Part shown: piece by piece, positions 3,325-47,496 of the stretch
Layout of the letters: each line of letters starts with the position of its first letter
How positions within the stretch are numbered: position 1 is the first letter of the stretch
NCBI GenBank assembly: GCA_024274695.1
Contig: JAJSAI010000031.1
Location: 1 to 47,496 of the forward strand
DNA: 47,496 nucleotides
Origin: an archaeon
GTDB lineage: Archaea; B1Sed10-29; JAJSAI01
Reading direction: 5' to 3'
Notes under the pieces: model-generated
What the model was told of the DNA's origin: nothing
Database searches by the model: none
The model's input: only the letters and a program-made list of their open reading frames with translations
Position numbers and translations under genes: made by a program

Positions 3325-5243
3325 TTTTCAGACCTCTTCCCGTAGACTTCTTCCAGGACGCTCACAGGGTCCTTGTAGTATCTTGCGATGATCTCTCCAA
3401 CATCCTTGTAGTACCTTATTCCCTTTTCCTTCATCCAGTTGAGTATGTCTCTTCTTCTCCTTATTTCTTCCCAAACGCTCTTTTCAGGAAGGCCCTTCTC
3501 TTCTATTATCCTGTTCACGATGTAGCTCCTGTCAGAGGAGAACTCGTAGTAGTCCTGGGACGGGACCCACTTGAAAAGGGTGTTGGTTATCAGGTTCCCT
3601 GTCCTGAAGTCCACTCCGACTATTTCTATCAGTTCTTTTATTCTTCTGACGTCCACGCCCTTGATGTGCGCGTGCTGTAGGATTATGACGATGTCAAGGT
3701 GCTGGAGAAGTCCTGGCGACAGGTTTATTGGGGGTGTGATGAGCCTGTTCACCACTGCCTCGAATGACTCCGCGTGCAAGGTGGCCATTCCAGGGTGTCC
3801 CGTCGCCATTCCCTGGAACAAGACGTACGCTTCTTTTCCCCTGACCTCTCCGACTATTATCTCGTCGGGCCTTTCTCTCAAGGCCGCTCTGAGCAGGTCG
3901 AACATGCTCACTTCCCCTCTCTCGCTCGGCCCGTATCCTGGTCTTGCGATCTTGGCCACCCAGTGCTCGTGAGGGAGCCTGAGCTCTGGAGTGTCTTCTA
4001 TGCTCACGATCTTGGCTTCAGGGTGCAGGAAAAGGCAGAGCGCGTTCAGCAGGCTTGTTTTTCCGGTAGCAGTTCCCCCGGCCACTAGTATGGAGTTCCT
4101 GAACTCTATGGCCAGCCACAGGTACGCTGCAATTGTTGCGGGAAGCGTCCCGTAGTTCATGAGGTCTATTACAGTGAGGGGATCCTTGGTGAATTTCCTG
4201 ATGGTGAACGTCGAGCCTCTTATGGCAATATCCTTCCCTGCTGAGAACGTTGCCTGCACTCTGCTCCCGTCGGGCAGGGCGCCGTTCATCAGGGGTTCTG
4301 CGACGGAAATGTGCTTCCCGCACCTCTGCGCTAGCTTGATTATGAAAGAATTCAGTTCCTCGGGGTCCGTGAACACGATGTTTGTTTTCAGGGAACCATA
4401 CTTTCTGTGGAAGACGTATATCGGGATGTTCACGCCGTCACAGGATATGTCTTCTATGTTCTCGTCCTGCATCAAGGGCTCTATCCTGCCGAGCCCGAGA
4501 AAATCCCTGTAAACGTAGTAGAGTATCTTGTTGTACGTTGCTTCCGTCATTTTTATGTCATAGTCCGCGATTATCTGATCAAGCTTTTCTTTCAAATAGT
4601 CCTTAACCCTCCCCGGCTCTTTCACTTCCATCAGGTTTATGTCCAGAAGGTCTATTATGAGCTCCTTAATCCTAGCAAGCTGTTTCTCCTCCTCCTGGGT
4701 CAAGGGAGGCTCTAGAACGTTGTACGTAAGACTGTGCTCCTTCTTGTTCCATTTTATGACCGCGTACGCGTACGGTTCTATTAGCGGGTATCTCACGTCA
4801 ATGGTTTTCAGTTCAGGAGGAGTCCACTGGGAAGGGATTATTCTCTTTTCTTCCTCGGGCACCTTGTGTTCTATGAACGCGAGGCCCCTCACCTTTTCTT
4901 CCTTCTTTCCCTTTGCCTCCCTTTTTATTTCCTCAGTGACCTTCGGGAACTCTATAACGACAGGGGCAGATGGCTTCTTCTTTTCCTCGGCTGGGGTCAT
5001 GCTCTCTTCAGGGATCTTCTCCTTGATTTCCTCCACTCTCTTTTCTTCAATCTCTTCTCCCGTTATCTTCTTCAGTTCTGAAAGGTAGTCCTTTTCCTCT
5101 TCCTTAGCCTCTTTTATCCACTCTCCGTACAAGGGCTCTTCTTCCTCTGTTTTGGCCAGCTTGACCCATTCCCCTACTTTCTCCTCTTCGGATCCCGGCC
5201 ACTCCTTCAACAGTTCCCTAAGCTTTTTCTTAGACAGGGGCAC
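3321..5243 (-). CDS. Type IV pilus assembly ATPase (FlaI/VirB11 family)
   Basis: Walker A GGTATGKT, SIEDTPEL, LRERPDEIIVGEVRG, TGHPGMATLHA. Confidence 0.95.
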   Translation of the reverse strand: MPLSKKKLRELLKEWPGSEEEKVGEWVKLAKTEEEEPLYGEWIKEAKEEEKDYLSELKKITGEEIEEKRVEEIKEKIPEESMTPAEEKKKPSAPVVIEFPKVTEEIKREAKGKKEEKVRGLAFIEHKVPEEEKRIIPSQWTPPELKTIDVRYPLIEPYAYAVIKWNKKEHSLTYNVLEPPLTQEEEKQLARIKELIIDLLDINLMEVKEPGRVKDYLKEKLDQIIADYDIKMTEATYNKILYYVYRDFLGLGRIEPLMQDENIEDISCDGVNIPIYVFHRKYGSLKTNIVFTDPEELNSFIIKLAQRCGKHISVAEPLMNGALPDGSRVQATFSAGKDIAIRGSTFTIRKFTKDPLTVIDLMNYGTLPATIAAYLWLAIEFRNSILVAGGTATGKTSLLNALCLFLHPEAKIVSIEDTPELRLPHEHWVAKIARPGYGPSERGEVSMFDLLRAALRERPDEIIVGEVRGKEAYVLFQGMATGHPGMATLHAESFEAVVNRLITPPINLSPGLLQHLDIVIILQHAHIKGVDVRRIKELIEIVGVDFRTGNLITNTLFKWVPSQDYYEFSSDRSYIVNRIIEEKGLPEKSVWEEIRRRRDILNWMKEKGIRYYKDVGEIIARYYKDPVSVLEEVYGKRSEK

Positions 5244-5673
5244 ACGTGTTCACCAGGCTAATTTTTTTGGTCCCGTTGTTCGAGGCGATAAGACACCTTT
5301 CTCCCCAAGAGACACTTCCGTTAACACTCACGAGGCTGCAGTTTATATTAGATACCGCGACAAAGCTCCTGTAGTACGCGGGATCCTGGGCGGTTACCTT
5401 GAGGCTGTCGTTCTCGCAGGATATGCTGACAGAGTACTCCGTGTCAGAGACAGGGAGGCTTACCCTGGTCTGGTACTCTGTATTGTTGTTCTTGATGAAC
5501 TCGTACGCGTTGATAAGCTTGTACTGGACGTCTCTTGCGATGTCCTCGAGCATGGCCTGATGCTGGGTCCCGCGCATTCCATGGGCTTCCTGGTTGAGGA
5601 CAGTCCAGATAGCGGACAGCATTATGACCAAGATCAGCACCCTGGTCATCGTTCCTACCGTGAACACGACCAT
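5230..5673 (-). CDS. Pilus-associated, N-terminally anchored protein
   Basis: N-terminal hydrophobic helix, Cys pairs, NxS/T sequons; overlaps the ATPase start. Confidence 0.6.
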   Translation of the reverse strand: MVVFTVGTMTRVLILVIMLSAIWTVLNQEAHGMRGTQHQAMLEDIARDVQYKLINAYEFIKNNNTEYQTRVSLPVSDTEYSVSISCENDSLKVTAQDPAYYRSFVAVSNINCSLVSVNGSVSWGERCLIASNNGTKKISLVNTCAPV

Positions 5674-41011: not shown

Positions 41012-43843
41012 ATGGCGTACGATCCCTTTTCGGTGGAAAGAAAGTGGCAGAAAGCCTGGGAAGAAGCAGGCCTTGGCAAGGCAGAGCCTGACCCTGGGAA
41101 GCCAAAGTTCTTCCTGCACTTCGCTTACCCCGGACCATCAGGATTCTTCCACGTAGGCCACATGAGAGGATACACTTACTCAGACGTGATCGCCCGGATA
41201 AAGAGAATGCAAGGGTACAACGTGCTCTTCCCCGTAGGAATTCACGCGACAGGAAACCCTGCAGTCGGTTTTGCCACGAAAGTAAAAAAGAAGGATCCTG
41301 TCATGCTCGAGTACCTTAAAGAAAACGGGGTAAGCGAACAGGACATCCAAAAGCTTGAAACTCCGGAAGGAGTGGTGGACTTCTTTGCTGAAGAATACCC
41401 AAGAGAATGGAAGTCCTTCGGGATAATCGCGGACTATGGCCGGCTCACGTGCACCATATGGCCTGACTACCAGAAGTTCATAGAATGGCAGTTCAAAAAA
41501 CTGAACGAGCTAGGGCTGCTCGTGCAAAAACCATACTATGCAACGTTCTGCGTGCGCTGCGGTCCAGTGGCCGTGGACCCCTCCGAGACGGACATCTCAA
41601 AAGGGGGGAACGCCAGGAAAGAAGAGTACGTTGCCCTCAAGTTCAAGCTGGAAGATTCTGATGAGTACCTTGTGGCGGTTACCCTAAGGCCAGAAACAGT
41701 GTACGGTCAAACGAACCTGTGGATAGACCCTGAAGGAGAATACTCAAGGGTGAGGGTTGGTAGTGAAGTTTGGGTAGTGTGCAAGCAGGCCGCTGAAAAA
41801 CTGACCTACCAGAAAGATGATGTTGAGATCCTAGGAGACGTTGACCCGAAAGACCTGCTCGGGAAGAAGGCAATAGCCCCAGGAATACACAAGCCAATAC
41901 CAATCCTTCCAGCCCACTTCATAGACCTGGAGGTCGGGACAGGGGTTGTTACCAGCGTGCCCTCCGACGCTCCAGACGACTACATAGGCCTGAGGGACCT
42001 CTGGGAGAACCCGTCAGAACTGGAAAAGTACGGCATAGACCCAGAAGAAGTGAAGAAGATAAAGGTTATCCCGATAATCAAGACCCCCGGGTACTCTGAC
42101 ACTCCTGCCAAGGACGTTGTTGAAGAACTCAGCGTGAAAAACCAGTTCGACAGAGAAAAACTAGAAGAAGCGAAGAAAATAGTGTACTCCAAAGGATTCC
42201 ATACAGGAGTAATGAACGAGAACTGCGGGAAGTACGCGGGAATGCCTGTTAACAAGGCCAAGGAACTCGTCAAGCAGGAGCTCATCGAGTCCGGAGAGGC
42301 TGACACCTTCTGGGACCTCTCGGAAGAAGTGGTATGCAGGTGCGGTTCAAGAGTTGTCATAAAAAAGGTGGACGACCAGTGGTTCATAAAATACTCTGAC
42401 CCAGAATGGAAAGAAAAGTCGAAAGCGCACGCCAGGAGCATGAGAATACTCCCACCGGAATACTATGAGAGCATGCCCCAAGTGATAGACTGGTACGACG
42501 ACAGGGCGTGCACCAGGATGGGCACGTGGCTGGGAACAAAACTCCCGTTCGACCAGAAGTGGATAATAGAGCCCATATCAGACTCTACCCTGTACCCTGT
42601 GATGTACGTTCTCTCAAAGTACACGAACGCAGGGAAGCTCAAGCCAGAGCACATGACGGAAGAGCTCCTGGACTACCTGCTGCTCGGCAAGGGCAGTCCC
42701 GAGGGCCACGGGATCCCGAAAGAACTTGCGGAAGAAATACGCAGGGAATTCGAGTACTGGTACCCGGTTGACCTGAACATCGGCGGGAAAGAGCACAAGA
42801 CAGTTCACTTCCCCGTTTACGTAATGAACCACGTGGCCGTCCTCAAGCCAGAACACTGGCCCAAAGGAATCTTCGTGCACTGGTGGATAACAGGAAAAGG
42901 AGGAAAAATAAGCAAGTCCAAAGGAGGAGCGAGCACCAGCATCCCAGTAATAACAAAGAGGAGGTCGGTGGACGCCCTCAGGCTTTACTACTGCCACTCG
43001 GCGAGCCCGTTCGTTGACTCAGAATTCGACGAGGGCACGGTAGAACAGTACGAGGAGCACCTGCAAAAGTTCTACTCTCTCGCCACAGAACTCTACTCTA
43101 AGGCGGGCGAGGAAGAAAAAGAGATAGACAAGTGGTTAGAGTCCAGGGTATCAAAAAGGATCGCGGACTCAAAGGAAAGCCTGGAAGAATACAACTTCAA
43201 GAGAGTGCTGGACCAGGTTTTCTTCGGGAGCATGCAGGACCTGGCATGGTACCAGAAAAGAGGAGGGAACAACAAGCAGGCCGTGAAAAGAGCCCTGGAG
43301 AAGGTGCTCAGAGCACTCTGCCCGTTCGTGCCACACGTCTGCGAGGAAATATGGCACGAGATAGGAAACACGAGCCTCTTATCAGCAGAATCCTGGCCAG
43401 AAGTAACACAGGTGGACGAGAAGGCGATAGCCGCAGAGGAAATGGTCCAGAACCTGGCCTCAGACATCCGGGAAATAATCCGGCTCGTCGGCAAAAAGCC
43501 TGCGAGGATAGTCCTGTTCGTGGCACCAGAATGGAAGAGAATCGCCTTGGAAAAGGCAAGAGAACTTTCCCCGAAAGAAGTCATCAAAGGGCTCATGCAA
43601 CTCCCTGAAGTCAGGGAAAAAGGAAAAGAAGGAGTCAAGTACGCTCAGTTCCTGGTCAAGCACATGAAAGAACTCCCAGACACTGTGCTTTCCAGGGACG
43701 AGGAAAAGAGCGCACTGGAGTCAGCCTCAGAATACCTCTCAAAAGAGTTTGACGCGGAAGTGCTCGTGCAACTAGCGGAAGAATCAGACAATCCAAAGGC
43801 AGGAAACGCTGTTCCAATGAAGCCAGCGGTCTTCCTGGAGTGA
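41012..43843 (+). CDS. leuS: Leucine--tRNA ligase (archaeal type)
   Basis: HVGH (HIGH), TLRPETVYGQTN, GTGVVTSVPSDAPDD editing domain, KISKS (KMSKS), C-terminal PMKPAVFLE. Confidence 0.95.
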   Translation: MAYDPFSVERKWQKAWEEAGLGKAEPDPGKPKFFLHFAYPGPSGFFHVGHMRGYTYSDVIARIKRMQGYNVLFPVGIHATGNPAVGFATKVKKKDPVMLEYLKENGVSEQDIQKLETPEGVVDFFAEEYPREWKSFGIIADYGRLTCTIWPDYQKFIEWQFKKLNELGLLVQKPYYATFCVRCGPVAVDPSETDISKGGNARKEEYVALKFKLEDSDEYLVAVTLRPETVYGQTNLWIDPEGEYSRVRVGSEVWVVCKQAAEKLTYQKDDVEILGDVDPKDLLGKKAIAPGIHKPIPILPAHFIDLEVGTGVVTSVPSDAPDDYIGLRDLWENPSELEKYGIDPEEVKKIKVIPIIKTPGYSDTPAKDVVEELSVKNQFDREKLEEAKKIVYSKGFHTGVMNENCGKYAGMPVNKAKELVKQELIESGEADTFWDLSEEVVCRCGSRVVIKKVDDQWFIKYSDPEWKEKSKAHARSMRILPPEYYESMPQVIDWYDDRACTRMGTWLGTKLPFDQKWIIEPISDSTLYPVMYVLSKYTNAGKLKPEHMTEELLDYLLLGKGSPEGHGIPKELAEEIRREFEYWYPVDLNIGGKEHKTVHFPVYVMNHVAVLKPEHWPKGIFVHWWITGKGGKISKSKGGASTSIPVITKRRSVDALRLYYCHSASPFVDSEFDEGTVEQYEEHLQKFYSLATELYSKAGEEEKEIDKWLESRVSKRIADSKESLEEYNFKRVLDQVFFGSMQDLAWYQKRGGNNKQAVKRALEKVLRALCPFVPHVCEEIWHEIGNTSLLSAESWPEVTQVDEKAIAAEEMVQNLASDIREIIRLVGKKPARIVLFVAPEWKRIALEKARELSPKEVIKGLMQLPEVREKGKEGVKYAQFLVKHMKELPDTVLSRDEEKSALESASEYLSKEFDAEVLVQLAEESDNPKAGNAVPMKPAVFLE

Positions 43844-43851
43844 GCGGTCCC

Positions 43852-44139
43852 ATGAAAGAAGAGAAAGTGATCAGGGTGCACGCTTTCTTCTCAGGCCTTG
43901 TACAGGGAGTTAACTTCAGGTACTACACTGCCATTAAGGCAAGAGAACTGGGAGTCAGGGGCTGGGTGAAAAACCTGTCTGACGGCAGGGTCGAGGCAGT
44001 GTTCGAGGGGCCTGAAGAAAGCGTGAAGCAAGTGCTCGAGTACTGCAGGCGCGGTCATCCGATCGCAAGAGTCGAGTCAGTAGAATTGAAGGAAGAAACG
44101 CCCCTGGGAGAAGAAGATTTCAGGATAGTCTATCACTAG
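43852..44139 (+). CDS. acyP: Acylphosphatase
   Basis: GLVQGVNFR, GWVKNLSDGRVE. Confidence 0.93.
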   Translation: MKEEKVIRVHAFFSGLVQGVNFRYYTAIKARELGVRGWVKNLSDGRVEAVFEGPEESVKQVLEYCRRGHPIARVESVELKEETPLGEEDFRIVYH

Positions 44140-44978
44140 CCTTTTAGCAGGGAGGACACGTACCTTTCCGTGCCTTTTATCACGAGCCCCTTGTTTCCAA
44201 GAGTTGTTGGAATGCTGGGAACCGAAAACGTTTTTTCCTTACGTATTCTAGTCTGAAGGTATTCGGAAAGCCTGCGGATCGCGAGATCCAGTCTCTCTTC
44301 CAGCGTTTCAGGAACATATTCCTGTACTTCCTCCTCTAGCACGTGTTCTATTATGTGCTTTTCAGGGAGCTGTATCCAGGCTTTTTTCACTTTTTCGGGT
44401 TTTAGCACGTGACCGAACACGTTAGCAGAAGGCCTGTTCACGAGTTTTCCTCCCATGACCACGACCAACGGTTTTTTGAGAGTTCCCAGGTTGTACAATC
44501 GGAAAAAAGAGTCCTTCCAGGCGAACGCGTCAAATCCCCAGCCCCTGAACAAAGGAACCCTTCTCTCGTTTATGAGCTCTAGCTTGAACAGGATCTCGTG
44601 GTACTCCTTGTTGCTCACGCTCTTTTTCTCAGACTCCTGCATTTTCGGGAGCGTGTTGATTTCCATGCTCTTTCTCTGGGAGAAATCTTTTCTGATGCCA
44701 AGCAGTTCACTCACGGTGTCCCTGAACAGTCTCTTCTTTTTCTCGTCAGGAACTCTTTTGGGAAGGAGGGCCAGCAGAGAATACCCCCTGGGAATGTTCG
44801 TTCCAAAATTTTTTCCCAGCCCCGCGATCTCCAGCAGGGACTCCGGGGTCACATTCTCTATGAACAGTTGAGAGGATACAGGGAACTGGTCGGCAAACCC
44901 CTCGGATTCTAAAAAAAGCGCGACCATGTCCTCGGCTATTACTCTCGAGGCCTGTTCAAAGAACTTCAACCCTACCAT
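44136..44978 (-). CDS. Hypothetical protein
   Basis: 280-aa ORF overlapping the upstream PEP-mobile gene; no motif recognised. Confidence 0.65.
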   Translation of the reverse strand: MVGLKFFEQASRVIAEDMVALFLESEGFADQFPVSSQLFIENVTPESLLEIAGLGKNFGTNIPRGYSLLALLPKRVPDEKKKRLFRDTVSELLGIRKDFSQRKSMEINTLPKMQESEKKSVSNKEYHEILFKLELINERRVPLFRGWGFDAFAWKDSFFRLYNLGTLKKPLVVVMGGKLVNRPSANVFGHVLKPEKVKKAWIQLPEKHIIEHVLEEEVQEYVPETLEERLDLAIRRLSEYLQTRIRKEKTFSVPSIPTTLGNKGLVIKGTERYVSSLLKG

Positions 44979-45279
44979 CCTCTGACACTCTCACGTCTTT
45001 CCCCAGCAGGCGAGAGGCTTCTTCCGGGCTTATCCTGACGCAGGGTATTCCAAGTTCTCTCAGGTAAATCCCAATGTGCGACAGGAAACCTCCTTCTGTT
45101 ATTATCACTCCCTTGCCTTTGCTCAATGCGAGAAGCTCCTTCAAGCTACTCTTTTTTGGCTCGAGCAGTACTATTCTACCGTTTAAGTCCTCCTCGTCCC
45201 GGAACAGTACTACTTTACCTGACGCTATTCCAGGAGAAATCACTTTTCCTTGAAGGATCTTCTTTGTCGTATGAATCAC
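44956..45279 (-). CDS. Stand-alone PEP-utilising enzyme mobile (phosphohistidine swivel) domain
   Basis: SPGIASGKV and TEGGFLSHIGIYLRELGIPCV, matching the GGxTSHAAIxARExGIP signature. Confidence 0.85.
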   Translation of the reverse strand: MIHTTKKILQGKVISPGIASGKVVLFRDEEDLNGRIVLLEPKKSSLKELLALSKGKGVIITEGGFLSHIGIYLRELGIPCVRISPEEASRLLGKDVRVSEDGRVEVL

Positions 45280-46419
45280 CCTCTTTGAGGATGTTTAATG
45301 CTAACTTTTTATATTTTACCACCTGAGGCCATACCCATTTTATGAGTTGACTTTCATACTTGCAGTTGGGTGGATGCGCCATTATATTGCCTGAAACATA
45401 TGCTAGAAATGGGCAGCTTCCTCCTTGACAAAGATTTTTTGAGAACAGAAAGCAGGATGAACATTCTTTCTTTAGTTTGCTAACTCGATTGTTCAGCAAA
45501 GATATTACAGGGGCTTCAAAGGCTTTTTCTAAAGTATTTATTTTAGAGAGATCAGCTAATTTAAAGAAATTATTATCTAGACTTGATGTCCTGTTACATA
45601 TGCTGATGCTACCGTCCCAGTCTACTGAAAGGTAATGTTTGGTTAACATGCATCCTGGGCTGAAGTGGCAGTAAGGAAGAGGTCTGTTGAAAATGATTGA
45701 TTGAACTATTCTATAAAATGTAGGTATGTTTATGGGGTCAGTGTCGTTACTCCAACATTTAAATAGATTTTTCATAAACTCAATATATTCTTGATGAGAA
45801 ACATGTATCTCGTCAAAATTTTTTACGGCGTTTCCTGAATAAACAAGAGGACTAGGTTGTAATCCAATTCCTTCTTCTTTAAAGAAATAATATATATCTT
45901 CTGCCCGGTTAACGTGATATCTTGTAATAACAATAATTGCTCCGATTGTTTTTTGTGTTTTTTAAGCATTCTTAAATTTTTTAAAACTTTTGTATGAGTT
46001 CCCTTGCCTTCATAATCTACTCTTAAAAGATCATGAATTTCTTTTGGTCCATCTAAACTAGAAGAAACATATGTGTGATATTTAGAAAAAAGAGAAACCC
46101 ATTTTTTGTTAAGTAATGTTGCATTTGTTTGAATTTTTACTTTTAAAAACAAATTTTGATTGTTTAGTGCGTTAAAAATTTCTTTTAATGCTTTTTTATA
46201 TTTTTCTAAACCCCAAAGAAGAGGTTCTCCTCCATGAAAAAGAATTTCTAAAGTGGATATTTTATTTTTGATTATATATTCTTTTGTCATTTCAATAAGT
46301 TTTTGAAAAAGTTCGAATGACATTTCTTTTTTATCTTAGTGAGGAACATAACAATATCGGCAATTAAGATTGCAAGCATTTCTTACGGGTCGTATCATTA
46401 ATGATAAAGTTTTAGACAT
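45215..46419 (-). pseudogene. Radical SAM/SPASM peptide maturase-like gene with two lesions
   Basis: MSKTLSLMIRPVRNACNLNCRYCYVPH* (CxxxCxxC); in-frame TAA at 46336-46338; FHGGEPLL, QTNATL, SLDGP; frameshift at the T6 run 45949-45954; SPASM cysteines in 45215-45775. About 401 aa if repaired. Confidence 0.85.
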
Positions 46420-46428
46420 ATTATTCAC

Positions 46429-46539
46429 TTAATATCTATCAACATAATCTACTCCTGCCCAATTATCATCATAATGATCAATATATTCATCAATATAATT
46501 ATCATCATATTCATCTTCATAAATATTATTAAATTTCAT
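46429..46539 (-). CDS. Putative RiPP precursor peptide, 36 aa, with YxD repeats
   Basis: Hand translation MKFNNIYEDEYDDNYIDEYIDHYDDNWAGVDYVDRY*; ends 9 nt before the rSAM ATG; TATA-like TTTTATTATAAA about 25-35 nt upstream. Confidence 0.75.
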   Translation of the reverse strand: MKFNNIYEDEYDDNYIDEYIDHYDDNWAGVDYVDRY

Positions 46540-46670
46540 AATTTTTTAAAAAGAAAAAATACTTTTTATAATAAAAGGCGGACAAGAAACATTTTTTGAA
46601 TCCATTTTTATACCCCCTTTTTAAATTTTTGATTATATCTTTTATTTTTTTAAAATAAAAAATTTTCTGC

Positions 46671-46889
46671 CGGGCCCAGTGGGATCCGAAAGGGAAGACA
46701 CCTGTGGTTTCATACCAGGAATTTCCAATTCCGGGATGATTCGGAAAGGCCTTTGCCTTTCCGATACTTCCCTTTACTCTCTTCCCTTCTTCCAAGGGAA
46801 AGGGGTAATAGGGGAATACCAAAAGGCGAAGCCTTTTGGATTATCTAAGAACCCAGGGGGCTCTTGGTATAAAACCGTAGGTTGTCCCT
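46671..46889. repeat. tRNA-linked hairpin repeat element, copy A (tRNA 3'-end fragment plus ~200-bp inverted-repeat-bounded body)
   Basis: 46671-46690 reads TTCGGATCCCACTGGGCCCG on minus; body 46691-46889 has imperfect terminal inverted repeats and internal hairpins. Confidence 0.8.
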
Positions 46890-46894
46890 GTCAG

Positions 46895-46968
46895 CGGGCC
46901 CACCGGGATTCGAACCCGGGTCACAAGCTCCGGAGGCTCGCATTCTGTCCAGGCTAAACTATGGGCCC
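46895..46968 (-). tRNA. tRNA-Arg(CCG)
   Basis: GGGCCCA/TGGGCCC-G, anticodon arm CGAGC-CTCCGGA-GCTTG, T arm CCGGG-TTCGAAT-CCCGG. Confidence 0.93.
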
Positions 46969-47018
46969 CTCCTGCATCACGGTTAGGATGAGGCGGGAGA
47001 GTGCTCAGCATTTTTGAT

Positions 47019-47106
47019 CTCGAGGCCAGCGCGTTGACCACTCCGCCATCCCGGCGCTAACGCCGGGAGTGGGATTCGAACCCACGAGGGCAAAAGCCCA
47101 CTGGCT
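47019..47106 (-). tRNA. Circularly permuted tRNA-Ser(CGA): 3' half 47106-47061, 5-nt linker, 5' half 47055-47019
   Basis: Halves assemble into a full cloverleaf with long variable arm and G73; break at 37/38 lies within a strict BHB; 11-bp leader/trailer stem. Confidence 0.9.
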
Positions 47107-47202: not shown

Positions 47203-47495
47203 TGGCGGGCCCAGTGGGATCCGAAAGGGAAGACACCTGCGGTTTCTCCCTCTACCCTCTTCCCTTCTTTAGGTAAAGGGAGGCTCATAAGGGGATACCA
47301 AAAGGGCGTTGCCCTTTTGGATCATCCAGGAACCTTTGGTTCCTGGTATGAAACCGTAGGTGCCCCTTATTCGGGTGAGGAGGGTAAAGAAAAATTTAGA
47401 AGGGAAAGGGGTAATAGGGGAATACCAAAAGGCGAAGCCTTTTGGATTATCCAAGAACCCAGGGGGTTCTTGGTATAAAACCGTAGGTTGTCCCT
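47203..47495. repeat. tRNA-linked hairpin repeat element, copy B
   Basis: 34 nt identical to the left end of copy A (plus CCA on minus); 47400-47495 matches 46794-46889 at 94/96; extra internal variant unit at about 47291-47367. Confidence 0.82.
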
Positions 47496-47496
47496 A

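Follow-up and report, generated by a model that had tools for sequence, protein, structure and literature searches.

Among the described systems closest to the locus discussed here are the triceptides, which are three-residue cyclophane members of the RiPPs (peptides made on the ribosome and modified after translation). They are made by the radical S-adenosylmethionine (SAM)/SPASM enzymes XyeB, GrrM/OscB, YhhB, FxsB, AmcB, ChlB and HtkB; within aromatic-X-X motifs, these synthases join an aromatic ring to the β-carbon of the residue that lies two positions further on (PMC11499958). For archaea, a 2025 survey gives no radical SAM-modified peptide as functionally characterised, and reports that clusters are predicted across archaeal lineages including DPANN (PMC12144867). 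Here we consider a locus near one end of an archaeal contig of 47,496 bp (JAJSAI010000031.1), the whole of which is called the window below, where a 36-amino acid (aa) open reading frame (ORF) with repeated Tyr-x-Asp (YxD) motifs stands directly ahead of a disrupted radical SAM/SPASM gene. We interpret the locus, with moderate confidence, as a rare RiPP-like cassette of four genes from small (DPANN-type) archaea, in a copy that was acquired horizontally and is probably no longer active. Judged from its genes, the cassette belongs with the radical SAM/SPASM RiPPs, has unusual conserved partners and an archaeal distribution, and would carry out a modification that is predicted. No description of the cassette itself was found in the literature searched.

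Other described enzymes are also relevant. DynA (NF041298) links an aromatic ring to the β-carbon of the residue two positions on, and it acts on a bacterial peptide that targets the outer membrane and has Trp and His in place of Tyr/Asp repeats. PapB (NF047865) carries out Asp-directed radical chemistry on acidic repeat peptides. The cassette resembles triceptide loci in that a short precursor lies directly upstream of an enzyme that is similar to the anaerobic sulfatase-maturating enzymes (anSMEs) and has no N-terminal recognition domain; in its repeated aromatic-X-X motifs, the number of which varies between relatives; and in that cyclophane maturase families are among the best hidden Markov model (HMM) scores of its enzymes, with ChlB as a solved sequence relative. 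It differs in that the cassette enzymes fall below the cut-offs for XyeB, GrrM/OscB, YhhB, FxsB and AmcB, form their own clade and occur in archaeal hosts, and in that the cassette has an invariant C-terminal Tyr, a putative cross-link, and two conserved partners, a phosphohistidine swivel protein and a 280-aa protein. DynA gives the top NCBIfam score for three of the enzymes, all of which are nevertheless far below its cut-off of 450 bits. The anSMEs (TIGR03942; PDB 4K36-4K39) share the domain layout and provide the closest solved structure by sequence, but the cassette has a dedicated upstream peptide and a separate clade, and its genome has no sulfatase above cut-off. PapB scores 119.7 bits with the enzyme of one Cys-rich relative (locus L021), whereas the window-type cores contain no Cys and the cut-off of 340 bits is not reached.

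The 36-aa ORF (Table 1), whose full translation is MKFNNIYEDEYDDNYIDEYIDHYDDNWAGVDYVDRY, contains YxD five times at a 4-residue period and a sixth time as YVD near its end, as an earlier note on this DNA had described. The position claimed there, 9 nt ahead of a radical SAM/SPASM gene, is also correct: the peptide stop codon occupies 46429-46431, and the enzyme ATG follows 9 nt further on. Its DNA consists of 4.8 copies of a 12-nt unit in tandem, with 75% matches. When the AT-rich island in which it lies was shuffled 1000 times with dinucleotides preserved, no more than three [YFW]xD motifs within 36 aa arose, a number reached in eight shuffles, and six were never obtained. The TATA-like string to which the earlier note drew attention is present (approximately 46562-46573, about 28 nt ahead of the peptide ATG), but it has little weight because the surrounding DNA is 23% GC. 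Only MKFNNI stands N-terminal to the repeats, so the description of the peptide as almost leaderless holds for this copy; however, its relatives carry Lys-rich leaders of 25-35 aa with a common motif, and the short N-terminus looks like decay rather than design. When an HMM of the leader, built from seven relatives, was run against 1638 six-frame segments of the window, no remnant was matched upstream of the peptide in any frame, and the best E-value anywhere was 0.74. In agreement with the earlier note, the ORF list and a family scan revealed no protease or transporter gene in the island.

Table 1. Positions of the features of the window that are discussed in the text
Feature	Position	Strand	Evidence
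Acylphosphatase gene	43840..44139	+	Pfam PF00708, 88.9 bits
Insertion relative to a same-genus genome, 3.05 kb	43844..46893		Comparison with genome G016
280-aa conserved protein, no family or PDB fold match found	44136..44978	-	Homologs in nine other loci or locus families
Stand-alone PEP-utilizers (phosphohistidine swivel) protein, 107 aa	44956..45279	-	Pfam PF00391, 29.8 bits (cut-off 23.1)
Radical SAM/SPASM maturase gene, broken twice, all cluster cysteines kept	45215..46428, ATG 46419	-	Pfam/NCBIfam and alignment to P0002
Predicted precursor peptide ORF, 36 aa, YxDx five times, then core YDDNWAGVDYVDRY	46429..46539	-	ORF translation and orthologous peptides
AT-rich upstream region with TATA-like string	46540..46661	-	Weak evidence, 23% GC DNA
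Multi-copy genomic repeat copy, island edge on tRNA side	46662..46893		96-nt core recurs
tRNA-Arg(CCG), insertion flank	46894..46968	-	In G016, 22 nt after the stop of the leucyl-tRNA synthetase (LeuRS) gene

Support for the peptide as a gene comes from comparison with other genomes. DNA surrounding relatives of the enzyme was retained for 18 genome loci and for 80 of 142 metagenome loci, and further loci were found by genome searches with the 280-aa protein. Seven distinct loci have readable DNA upstream of the enzyme (the window, L002, L003, which is the same as L020, L022, L109, L021, and the type represented by L023, L060 and L113), and in all seven a short ORF ending in Tyr is located directly upstream, which upholds the idea that the ORF is a conserved partner of the radical SAM/SPASM gene. 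Six of the seven distinct peptides terminate in Y-[VF]-D-[RKG]-Y. Outside the window, the C-terminal ends are ...TMYDDSWATEDYVDRY (L002), ...(Y-x-D)x12-SWATEDYVDRY (L003), ...NYEDWAGDEYVDKY (L022), ...HGADEYVDGY (L109), ...CDQYFDKY (L023 type) and ...SSEKY, the last after a Cys/Asp-rich core (L021). Two of the cores are Cys-rich, that of L021 being rich in CDS/CDK and that of the L023 type having four Cys. The cores of the window, L002, L003, L022 and L109 are free of Cys. The YxD motif occurs 6 times in the window, 13 times in L003 and twice in L002.

Over the last 14 residues, the peptides of the window and of L002, its closest relative, are identical at 11 positions, and eight of those 11 codons differ synonymously. 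The repeat of L003 consists of 12 tandem YxD units with a 3-residue period, and its tail uses mixed codons (9 TAC and 5 TAT for Tyr, 7 GAT and 7 GAC for Asp, and five codons from both codon families for Ser), which argues that the repeat is held at the protein level and is not a product of fresh DNA slippage. These codon patterns show that selection on the peptide acts on its protein sequence. The repeats of the window (4-residue period) and of L003 (3-residue period) are independent in-frame expansions of the unit ahead of a conserved W-A-x-x-D-Y-V-D-R-Y core. The earlier note had described the exact 4-residue period. YxD does behave as a selected unit, but the conserved element is the C-terminal 14 residues, and the 4-residue repeat is private to the window copy. 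When 5.8 billion proteins were searched with a profile built from the aligned peptides, the yield was only six peptides, all of the same locus families, together with one new variant of 42 aa; the peptide family is tiny in public data. In summary of its class, a gene-encoded peptide beside a modifying enzyme is co-conserved across genomes in seven distinct pairs, the peptides have the aromatic-X-X motifs of triceptide precursors, and all seven share with mycofactocin-type precursors a final Tyr.

The adjoining enzyme gene encodes the CNLNCRYC, HGGEP and SPASM cysteine motifs that had been read from it earlier, and family scores agree: the window enzyme gives 67.7 bits with Pfam Radical_SAM (cut-off 29.5) and 29.4 bits with the NCBIfam SPASM domain TIGR04085 (cut-off 27), although its 16.9 bits with Pfam SPASM are below the cut-off of 21.5. 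The CxxxCxxC motif and the SPASM auxiliary-cluster cysteines are found together only when the gene is read through both of its lesions, which are described below. Because the start is only a few residues before the first cluster motif, the enzyme has no N-terminal recognition domain. The family is sparsely represented. Among 1.84 billion representative proteins, an HMMER search with the C-terminal part of the window enzyme found three at E <= 1e-30, one of them the window's own ORF, with the next at 3.5e-23, and a word-indexed search with the C-terminal piece returned the window's own ORF alone among 189 candidates. P0002 (390 aa), the enzyme paired with the L002 peptide, is the best relative of full length and shows 44-46% identity across both halves.

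Scores of P0002 against curated families were 196.7 bits for DynA (cut-off 450), 192.9 for anSME (349.45), 152.4 for GrrM/OscB (310), 148 for YhhB (445), 143 for TIGR04083 (300), 132.1 for PapB (340), 119.7 for FxsB (370), 106.3 for AmcB (425) and 103.9 for XyeB (450). Of 39 NCBIfam families, the 25 that matched P0002 best included neither MftC (TIGR03962; cut-off 265) nor PqqE (cut-off 381), which places both below 62.4 bits. DynA was also the top NCBIfam family for the relative P0123 (189.0 bits) and for the L021 enzyme (127.5 bits), and the two halves of the window enzyme gave 123.3 and 69.2 bits with DynA and 126.3 and 56.2 bits with anSME. Solved relatives by sequence are anSME 4K36 (the closest, E 1.8e-38), CteB-like 5WGG and, as one of four, the triceptide synthase ChlB 9GM3. 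A quick maximum-likelihood tree placed the ten cassette-type enzymes in one clade with an approximate likelihood ratio (SH-aLRT) support of 95. Apart from it lay the named anSMEs (96) and a Bacteroidales clade (100), in which the upstream peptides are likewise acidic and rich in aromatic residues. The tree had 33 rows, six of them composition-skewed, came from a short search, and included the window enzyme read through with X at its breaks. The family appears from these comparisons to be a clade of its own that adjoins DynA- and anSME-like enzymes. The phylogenetic comparison with anSMEs that the earlier note proposed separates the cassette enzymes from the named anSMEs sampled, and the cut-off of no named cyclophane family is reached. 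In the window's genome, which is 91% complete, the best match to the sulfatase family PF00884 is 18.9 bits, below the cut-off of 25.

The Bacteroidales loci (L004, L007, L013 and L018) deserve separate mention. They carry DynA-like radical SAM/SPASM genes, that of L018 scoring 276.8 bits against the cut-off of 450, and upstream ORFs that are acidic and rich in Tyr, His and Asp, with ...GVGY as the terminus in two cases (L004 and L018). A search of the surroundings of these four enzymes found no swivel gene, and the set looks like a separate, unnamed bacterial family.

The earlier note regarded the unit as peptide plus enzyme. The pair is real, but two further genes had been missed, one for a stand-alone phosphohistidine swivel domain and one for the 280-aa protein, and all four genes occur together in each of the six loci that are long enough (the window, L002, L003, L021, L109 and the L023 type; L022, at only 1.2 kb, was left out of this count). 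In the window, the start of the swivel gene overlaps the 3′ end of the maturase gene by 65 nt, and the 280-aa gene overlaps the swivel gene by 23 nt. Overlapping reading frames are typical of the cassette, and the gene order differs in some loci. The swivel protein scores above the PF00391 gathering cut-off, and its phosphocarrier-type His is kept throughout the cassette homologs (10 of 10), which argues for phosphoryl transfer; phosphorylation is predicted from the sequence. A His swivel domain is also found in rifampin phosphotransferase (PMC4844700) and in the phosphoenolpyruvate (PEP) synthase/pyruvate phosphate dikinase (PPDK) family; the cassette swivel differs in being free-standing (about 100 aa), in having no ATP-grasp domain in its cassette, and in having a radical SAM enzyme and the 280-aa protein as neighbors. 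Although the window cassette is without an ATP-grasp domain, the genome encodes a PEP synthase of 771 aa. The 280-aa protein has no match in Pfam, NCBIfam or PADLOC. An AlphaFold2 model of it (pLDDT 83.5, pTM 0.84) gave no fold match in the PDB (best Foldseek E-value 0.09, best VIA-align Z 3.4) and no usable match in the Atlas.

A larger version of the cassette is present in L109 (3257-7692), in which the peptide, radical SAM/SPASM, 280-like and swivel genes are accompanied by genes for a methyltransferase, a Flavoprotein-family protein and a second radical SAM protein; this locus looks like a fuller biosynthetic cluster. In L002, a gene of the histidine-specific methyltransferase family (4702-5652; PF10017, 74.2 bits) is situated directly upstream of the peptide. 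A role in defence was considered and set aside, as PADLOC gave only generic radical SAM matches to pVip (49.7 bits), with a weak mad2 match for the methyltransferase of L109. Among viral contigs, 27 pattern matches for enzyme relatives and four for relatives of the 280-aa protein were examined, and none was confirmed.

The origin of the window copy is indicated by its setting. The window is one of 32 contigs of an 825-kb genome (G000) and encodes archaeal proteins near the locus, including LeuRS, Nop5, fibrillarin and an STT3-type glycosyltransferase. In a genome of the same genus (G016), which is 73-85% identical at the nucleotide level in the flanks, the LeuRS stop codon is followed after 22 nt by tRNA-Arg(CCG), and the insertion is absent. 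In the window, these two landmarks are separated by the 3.05-kb insertion. The insertion holds the acylphosphatase gene, the four cassette genes and one copy of a multi-copy repeat. Within it, composition is uneven: the part with the peptide and enzyme genes is approximately 25% GC, and the AT-rich 1.4 kb has 23-35% GC, compared with about 52% in the flanks, and GC content at third codon positions is 0.05 for the peptide, 0.14 and 0.31 for the N- and C-terminal parts of the enzyme, 0.48 for the swivel gene, 0.61 for the 280-aa gene, 0.62 for the acylphosphatase gene and 0.63 for LeuRS. The closest AT-rich relative is L022, with 22% GC. The 280-aa protein occurs in one of 31 genomes of the window's phylum (G000 only) and in 8 of 215 genomes of the phylum of L002.

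We are moderately confident that the window copy is inactive. The enzyme gene has an in-frame TAA at 46336-46338, immediately after CNLNCRYCYVPH (CYVPH), and a one-base frame change within A6-CAC-A6 at 45949-45963, both positions being fixed by alignment to the intact P0002; when the gene is read through these lesions, CxxxCxxC, GGEP and every SPASM cysteine are kept. Together with the loss of the leader relative to the other peptides, the nonsense codon and the poly-A frameshift suggest that the copy is probably dead. In our reading, an allele whose donor was very AT-rich took the place of the peptide-enzyme module and then decayed, acquiring the nonsense codon and the frameshift and losing the leader. 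Because the copy is probably a decaying import, its direct physiological weight in this genome would be low.

For the intact relatives, there is a plausible, if tentative, scheme of action. The short ORF would be a precursor peptide with a conserved acidic, Tyr/Asp-rich C-terminal core and an invariant final Tyr. The enzyme would most likely abstract hydrogen from the β-carbon of Asp and bond this carbon to the ring of the Tyr that precedes Asp by two residues, in a triceptide-type cyclophane, once per YxD unit. With one link per unit, the free variation in unit number among relatives would be accounted for. The swivel and 280-aa proteins may add or relay a phosphoryl-dependent step. Cyclophane formation fits because Tyr and Asp are held while the number of YxD units varies, because the enzyme is of this general clade, and because other tailoring genes are absent. 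We place the chance that Tyr-Asp cyclophanes are in fact the product at somewhat less than even.

A number of observations weigh against our interpretation, and several of them give substance to other explanations. The lesions and junctions were judged from the assembly alone, for which no sequencing run is listed, and the frameshift by itself could be an assembly error, because the contigs of L060 and L113, identical at 1146 of 1147 positions, differ solely by an A6/A7 poly-A indel that breaks the orthologous enzyme gene of L060. If both the TAA and the frameshift were sequencing or assembly errors in low-complexity AT-rich DNA, the window system would be intact and the archaeon would make a modified peptide, which would agree with the A6-CAC-A6 context and with the retention of all Fe-S cysteines and the GGEP motif. 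We nonetheless consider an intact system unlikely, since an in-frame TAA is not a homopolymer error and is harder to explain as a sequencing error than the frameshift, and since the leader motif conserved in six relatives is missing from the window peptide, a loss that also counts against our own reading. The edge of the island is a multi-copy repeat, and the locus is 1-2 kb from a contig end. These facts and the contrast in GC content with the flanks would be expected if 1.4 kb of AT-rich DNA from another organism in the sample had been wrongly joined. Such a chimera is improbable, given that both flanks are host-like and have the LeuRS ... tRNA-Arg order of the same-genus genome, that the gene order and the overlap of enzyme and swivel are as in L002 and L003, and that two false joins within 1.4 kb would be needed. 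Still less probable, in our view to the point of being scarcely credible, is that a non-coding tandem repeat happens to read as an ORF and that the enzyme is just an ordinary anSME: the 12-nt repeat in AT-rich DNA and the position of anSME among the top family scores are what this would predict, but the C-terminal core is conserved with synonymous changes, the anSME score of P0002 is below the cut-off of 349, the genome has no above-cut-off sulfatase, and the clade of cassette enzymes is separate from the named anSMEs. Finally, the 280-like and swivel genes occur as a pair without the peptide in four loci (L110, L111, L112 and L114), so that the tie of the pair to the peptide may be indirect; in L111 the pair adjoins a kinase-like protein composed of PPDK_N plus a swivel.

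With regard to the chemistry, none of the NCBIfam models reaches its curated cut-off for the full-length relatives, and a simple YxD model does not account for the invariant terminal Tyr, a residue that points to a second or different site. It could be that the enzyme acts on this Tyr, through MftC-like oxidative decarboxylation and cyclisation or a PqqE-like link between Glu/Asp and Tyr, and that the product is small and cofactor-like, with the YxD units as spacer or decoy. The final Tyr of all seven peptides and the Y-[VF]-D-[RKG]-Y terminus of six are in keeping with action at this residue, as is the gene in L109 for a Flavoprotein-family protein, a family that includes peptide C-terminal decarboxylases. 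We find this account doubtful, because the MftC and PqqE scores of P0002 are so far beneath their cut-offs, because independent in-frame YxD expansions under protein-level selection are hard to square with inert units, and because the sporadic distribution of the cassette, as traced by the 280-like marker, is unlike that of a core cofactor. The Cys-rich cores of L021 and the L023 type would fit thioether chemistry, and a chemistry common to the whole family is therefore uncertain. The shared step might take hydrogen from Asp or another side-chain carbon and use a partner that varies, giving a ranthipeptide-like thioether to Cys in the Cys-rich relatives and a C-O or C-C bond to Tyr here, rather than a strict triceptide; the ranthipeptide enzyme PapB is near the top of the scores for both P0002 and the L021 enzyme. 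To this possibility too we give little credence, as the other five cores are without Cys and neither enzyme attains the PapB cut-off. Tyr-Asp cyclophanes made once per YxD unit remain the scheme we prefer for the intact cassettes.

The swivel domain of the cassette has counterparts elsewhere. The window's genome contains four PF00391 genes besides the cassette swivel and PEP synthase, and three of the four other short swivel genes directly follow a radical SAM maturase-like gene on the same strand (loci L130, L131 and L132, on contigs C30, C29 and C19, were examined). On contig C30 (L130, 3556-8199), there are two such enzymes, of 606 and 710 aa, and each has an overlapping swivel gene (103 or 130 aa); on contig C29 (L131, 2644-5136), a gap of 316 nt separates a 384-aa enzyme from the 340-aa protein behind it, which has its swivel at the N-terminus. 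In other genomes of the window's phylum (loci L162-L176, open frame <=132 aa), a radical SAM maturase-like gene is directly upstream of 5 of 15 stand-alone swivel genes (E 2e-12 to 1.5e-36 with profile A2), while 8 adjoin a protein of 284-371 aa without the cluster motif and 2 are unclear. None of the roughly 300-aa neighbors of these other swivel genes matched the HMM of the 280-aa alignment (A3) at E <= 1e-3. The occurrences in the genome (3 of 4) and in the phylum (5 of 15) indicate that the pairing of swivel and radical SAM genes is recurrent, and we found no description of it in the literature searched. As a speculation that we consider unlikely but worth stating, free-standing swivel proteins could be dedicated partners of radical SAM/SPASM maturases, with YxD cross-linking coupled to phosphoryl transfer on the same acidic peptide (e.g., to Asp carboxylates or Tyr hydroxyls) and with the 280-aa protein as an acceptor or substrate module; it is adjacency that points to such a partnership. 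If true, the coupling would be a logic that no described RiPP class is known to use. Apart from this, the radical SAM gene of locus L131 on contig C29 (2644-3798 of the locus) is a second AT-rich one, with a GC content of 0.35 compared with 0.50-0.55 for its neighbors, and is the gene that the swivel-domain protein follows.

The cassette is a very small and concrete target with clear predictions, with a peptide of 36-84 aa, one enzyme of about 390 aa and two small partners. Its natural variants with 2, 6 or 13 YxD units provide a built-in dose series for counting cross-links, and it exposes a recurring and undescribed pairing of phosphohistidine swivel proteins with radical SAM maturases.

The remaining observations concern the surroundings of the cassette. 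Among G000, G016 and the genome of L002 (G031), the acylphosphatase gene is present in G000 only; its position beside a phosphoryl-carrier protein and an Asp-rich peptide may be coincidental. The multi-copy repeat has a 96-nt core, of which four other copies, 98% identical, lie on contigs C27, C22 and C19 and, as the window's final 96 nt, at 47400-47495. The repeat, which starts with a tRNA-like 3′ end (family D7), is also present at 47203-47496 and on contig C9, and it has no match in Rfam. It may be a mobile or structured element and a cause of assembly breaks. Between the insertion and the contig end, at 47018-47105 on the minus strand, there is a circularly permuted gene for tRNA-Ser(CGA), in which the 3′ half (47105-47061) comes first, with 5 nt between it and the 5′ half (47055-47018). 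ARAGORN misses the gene as it stands and recognizes a clean tRNA-Ser of 83 nt once the halves are re-ordered. To our knowledge, archaea very rarely have permuted tRNA genes; in the same-genus genome, conservation of the region is 85%.

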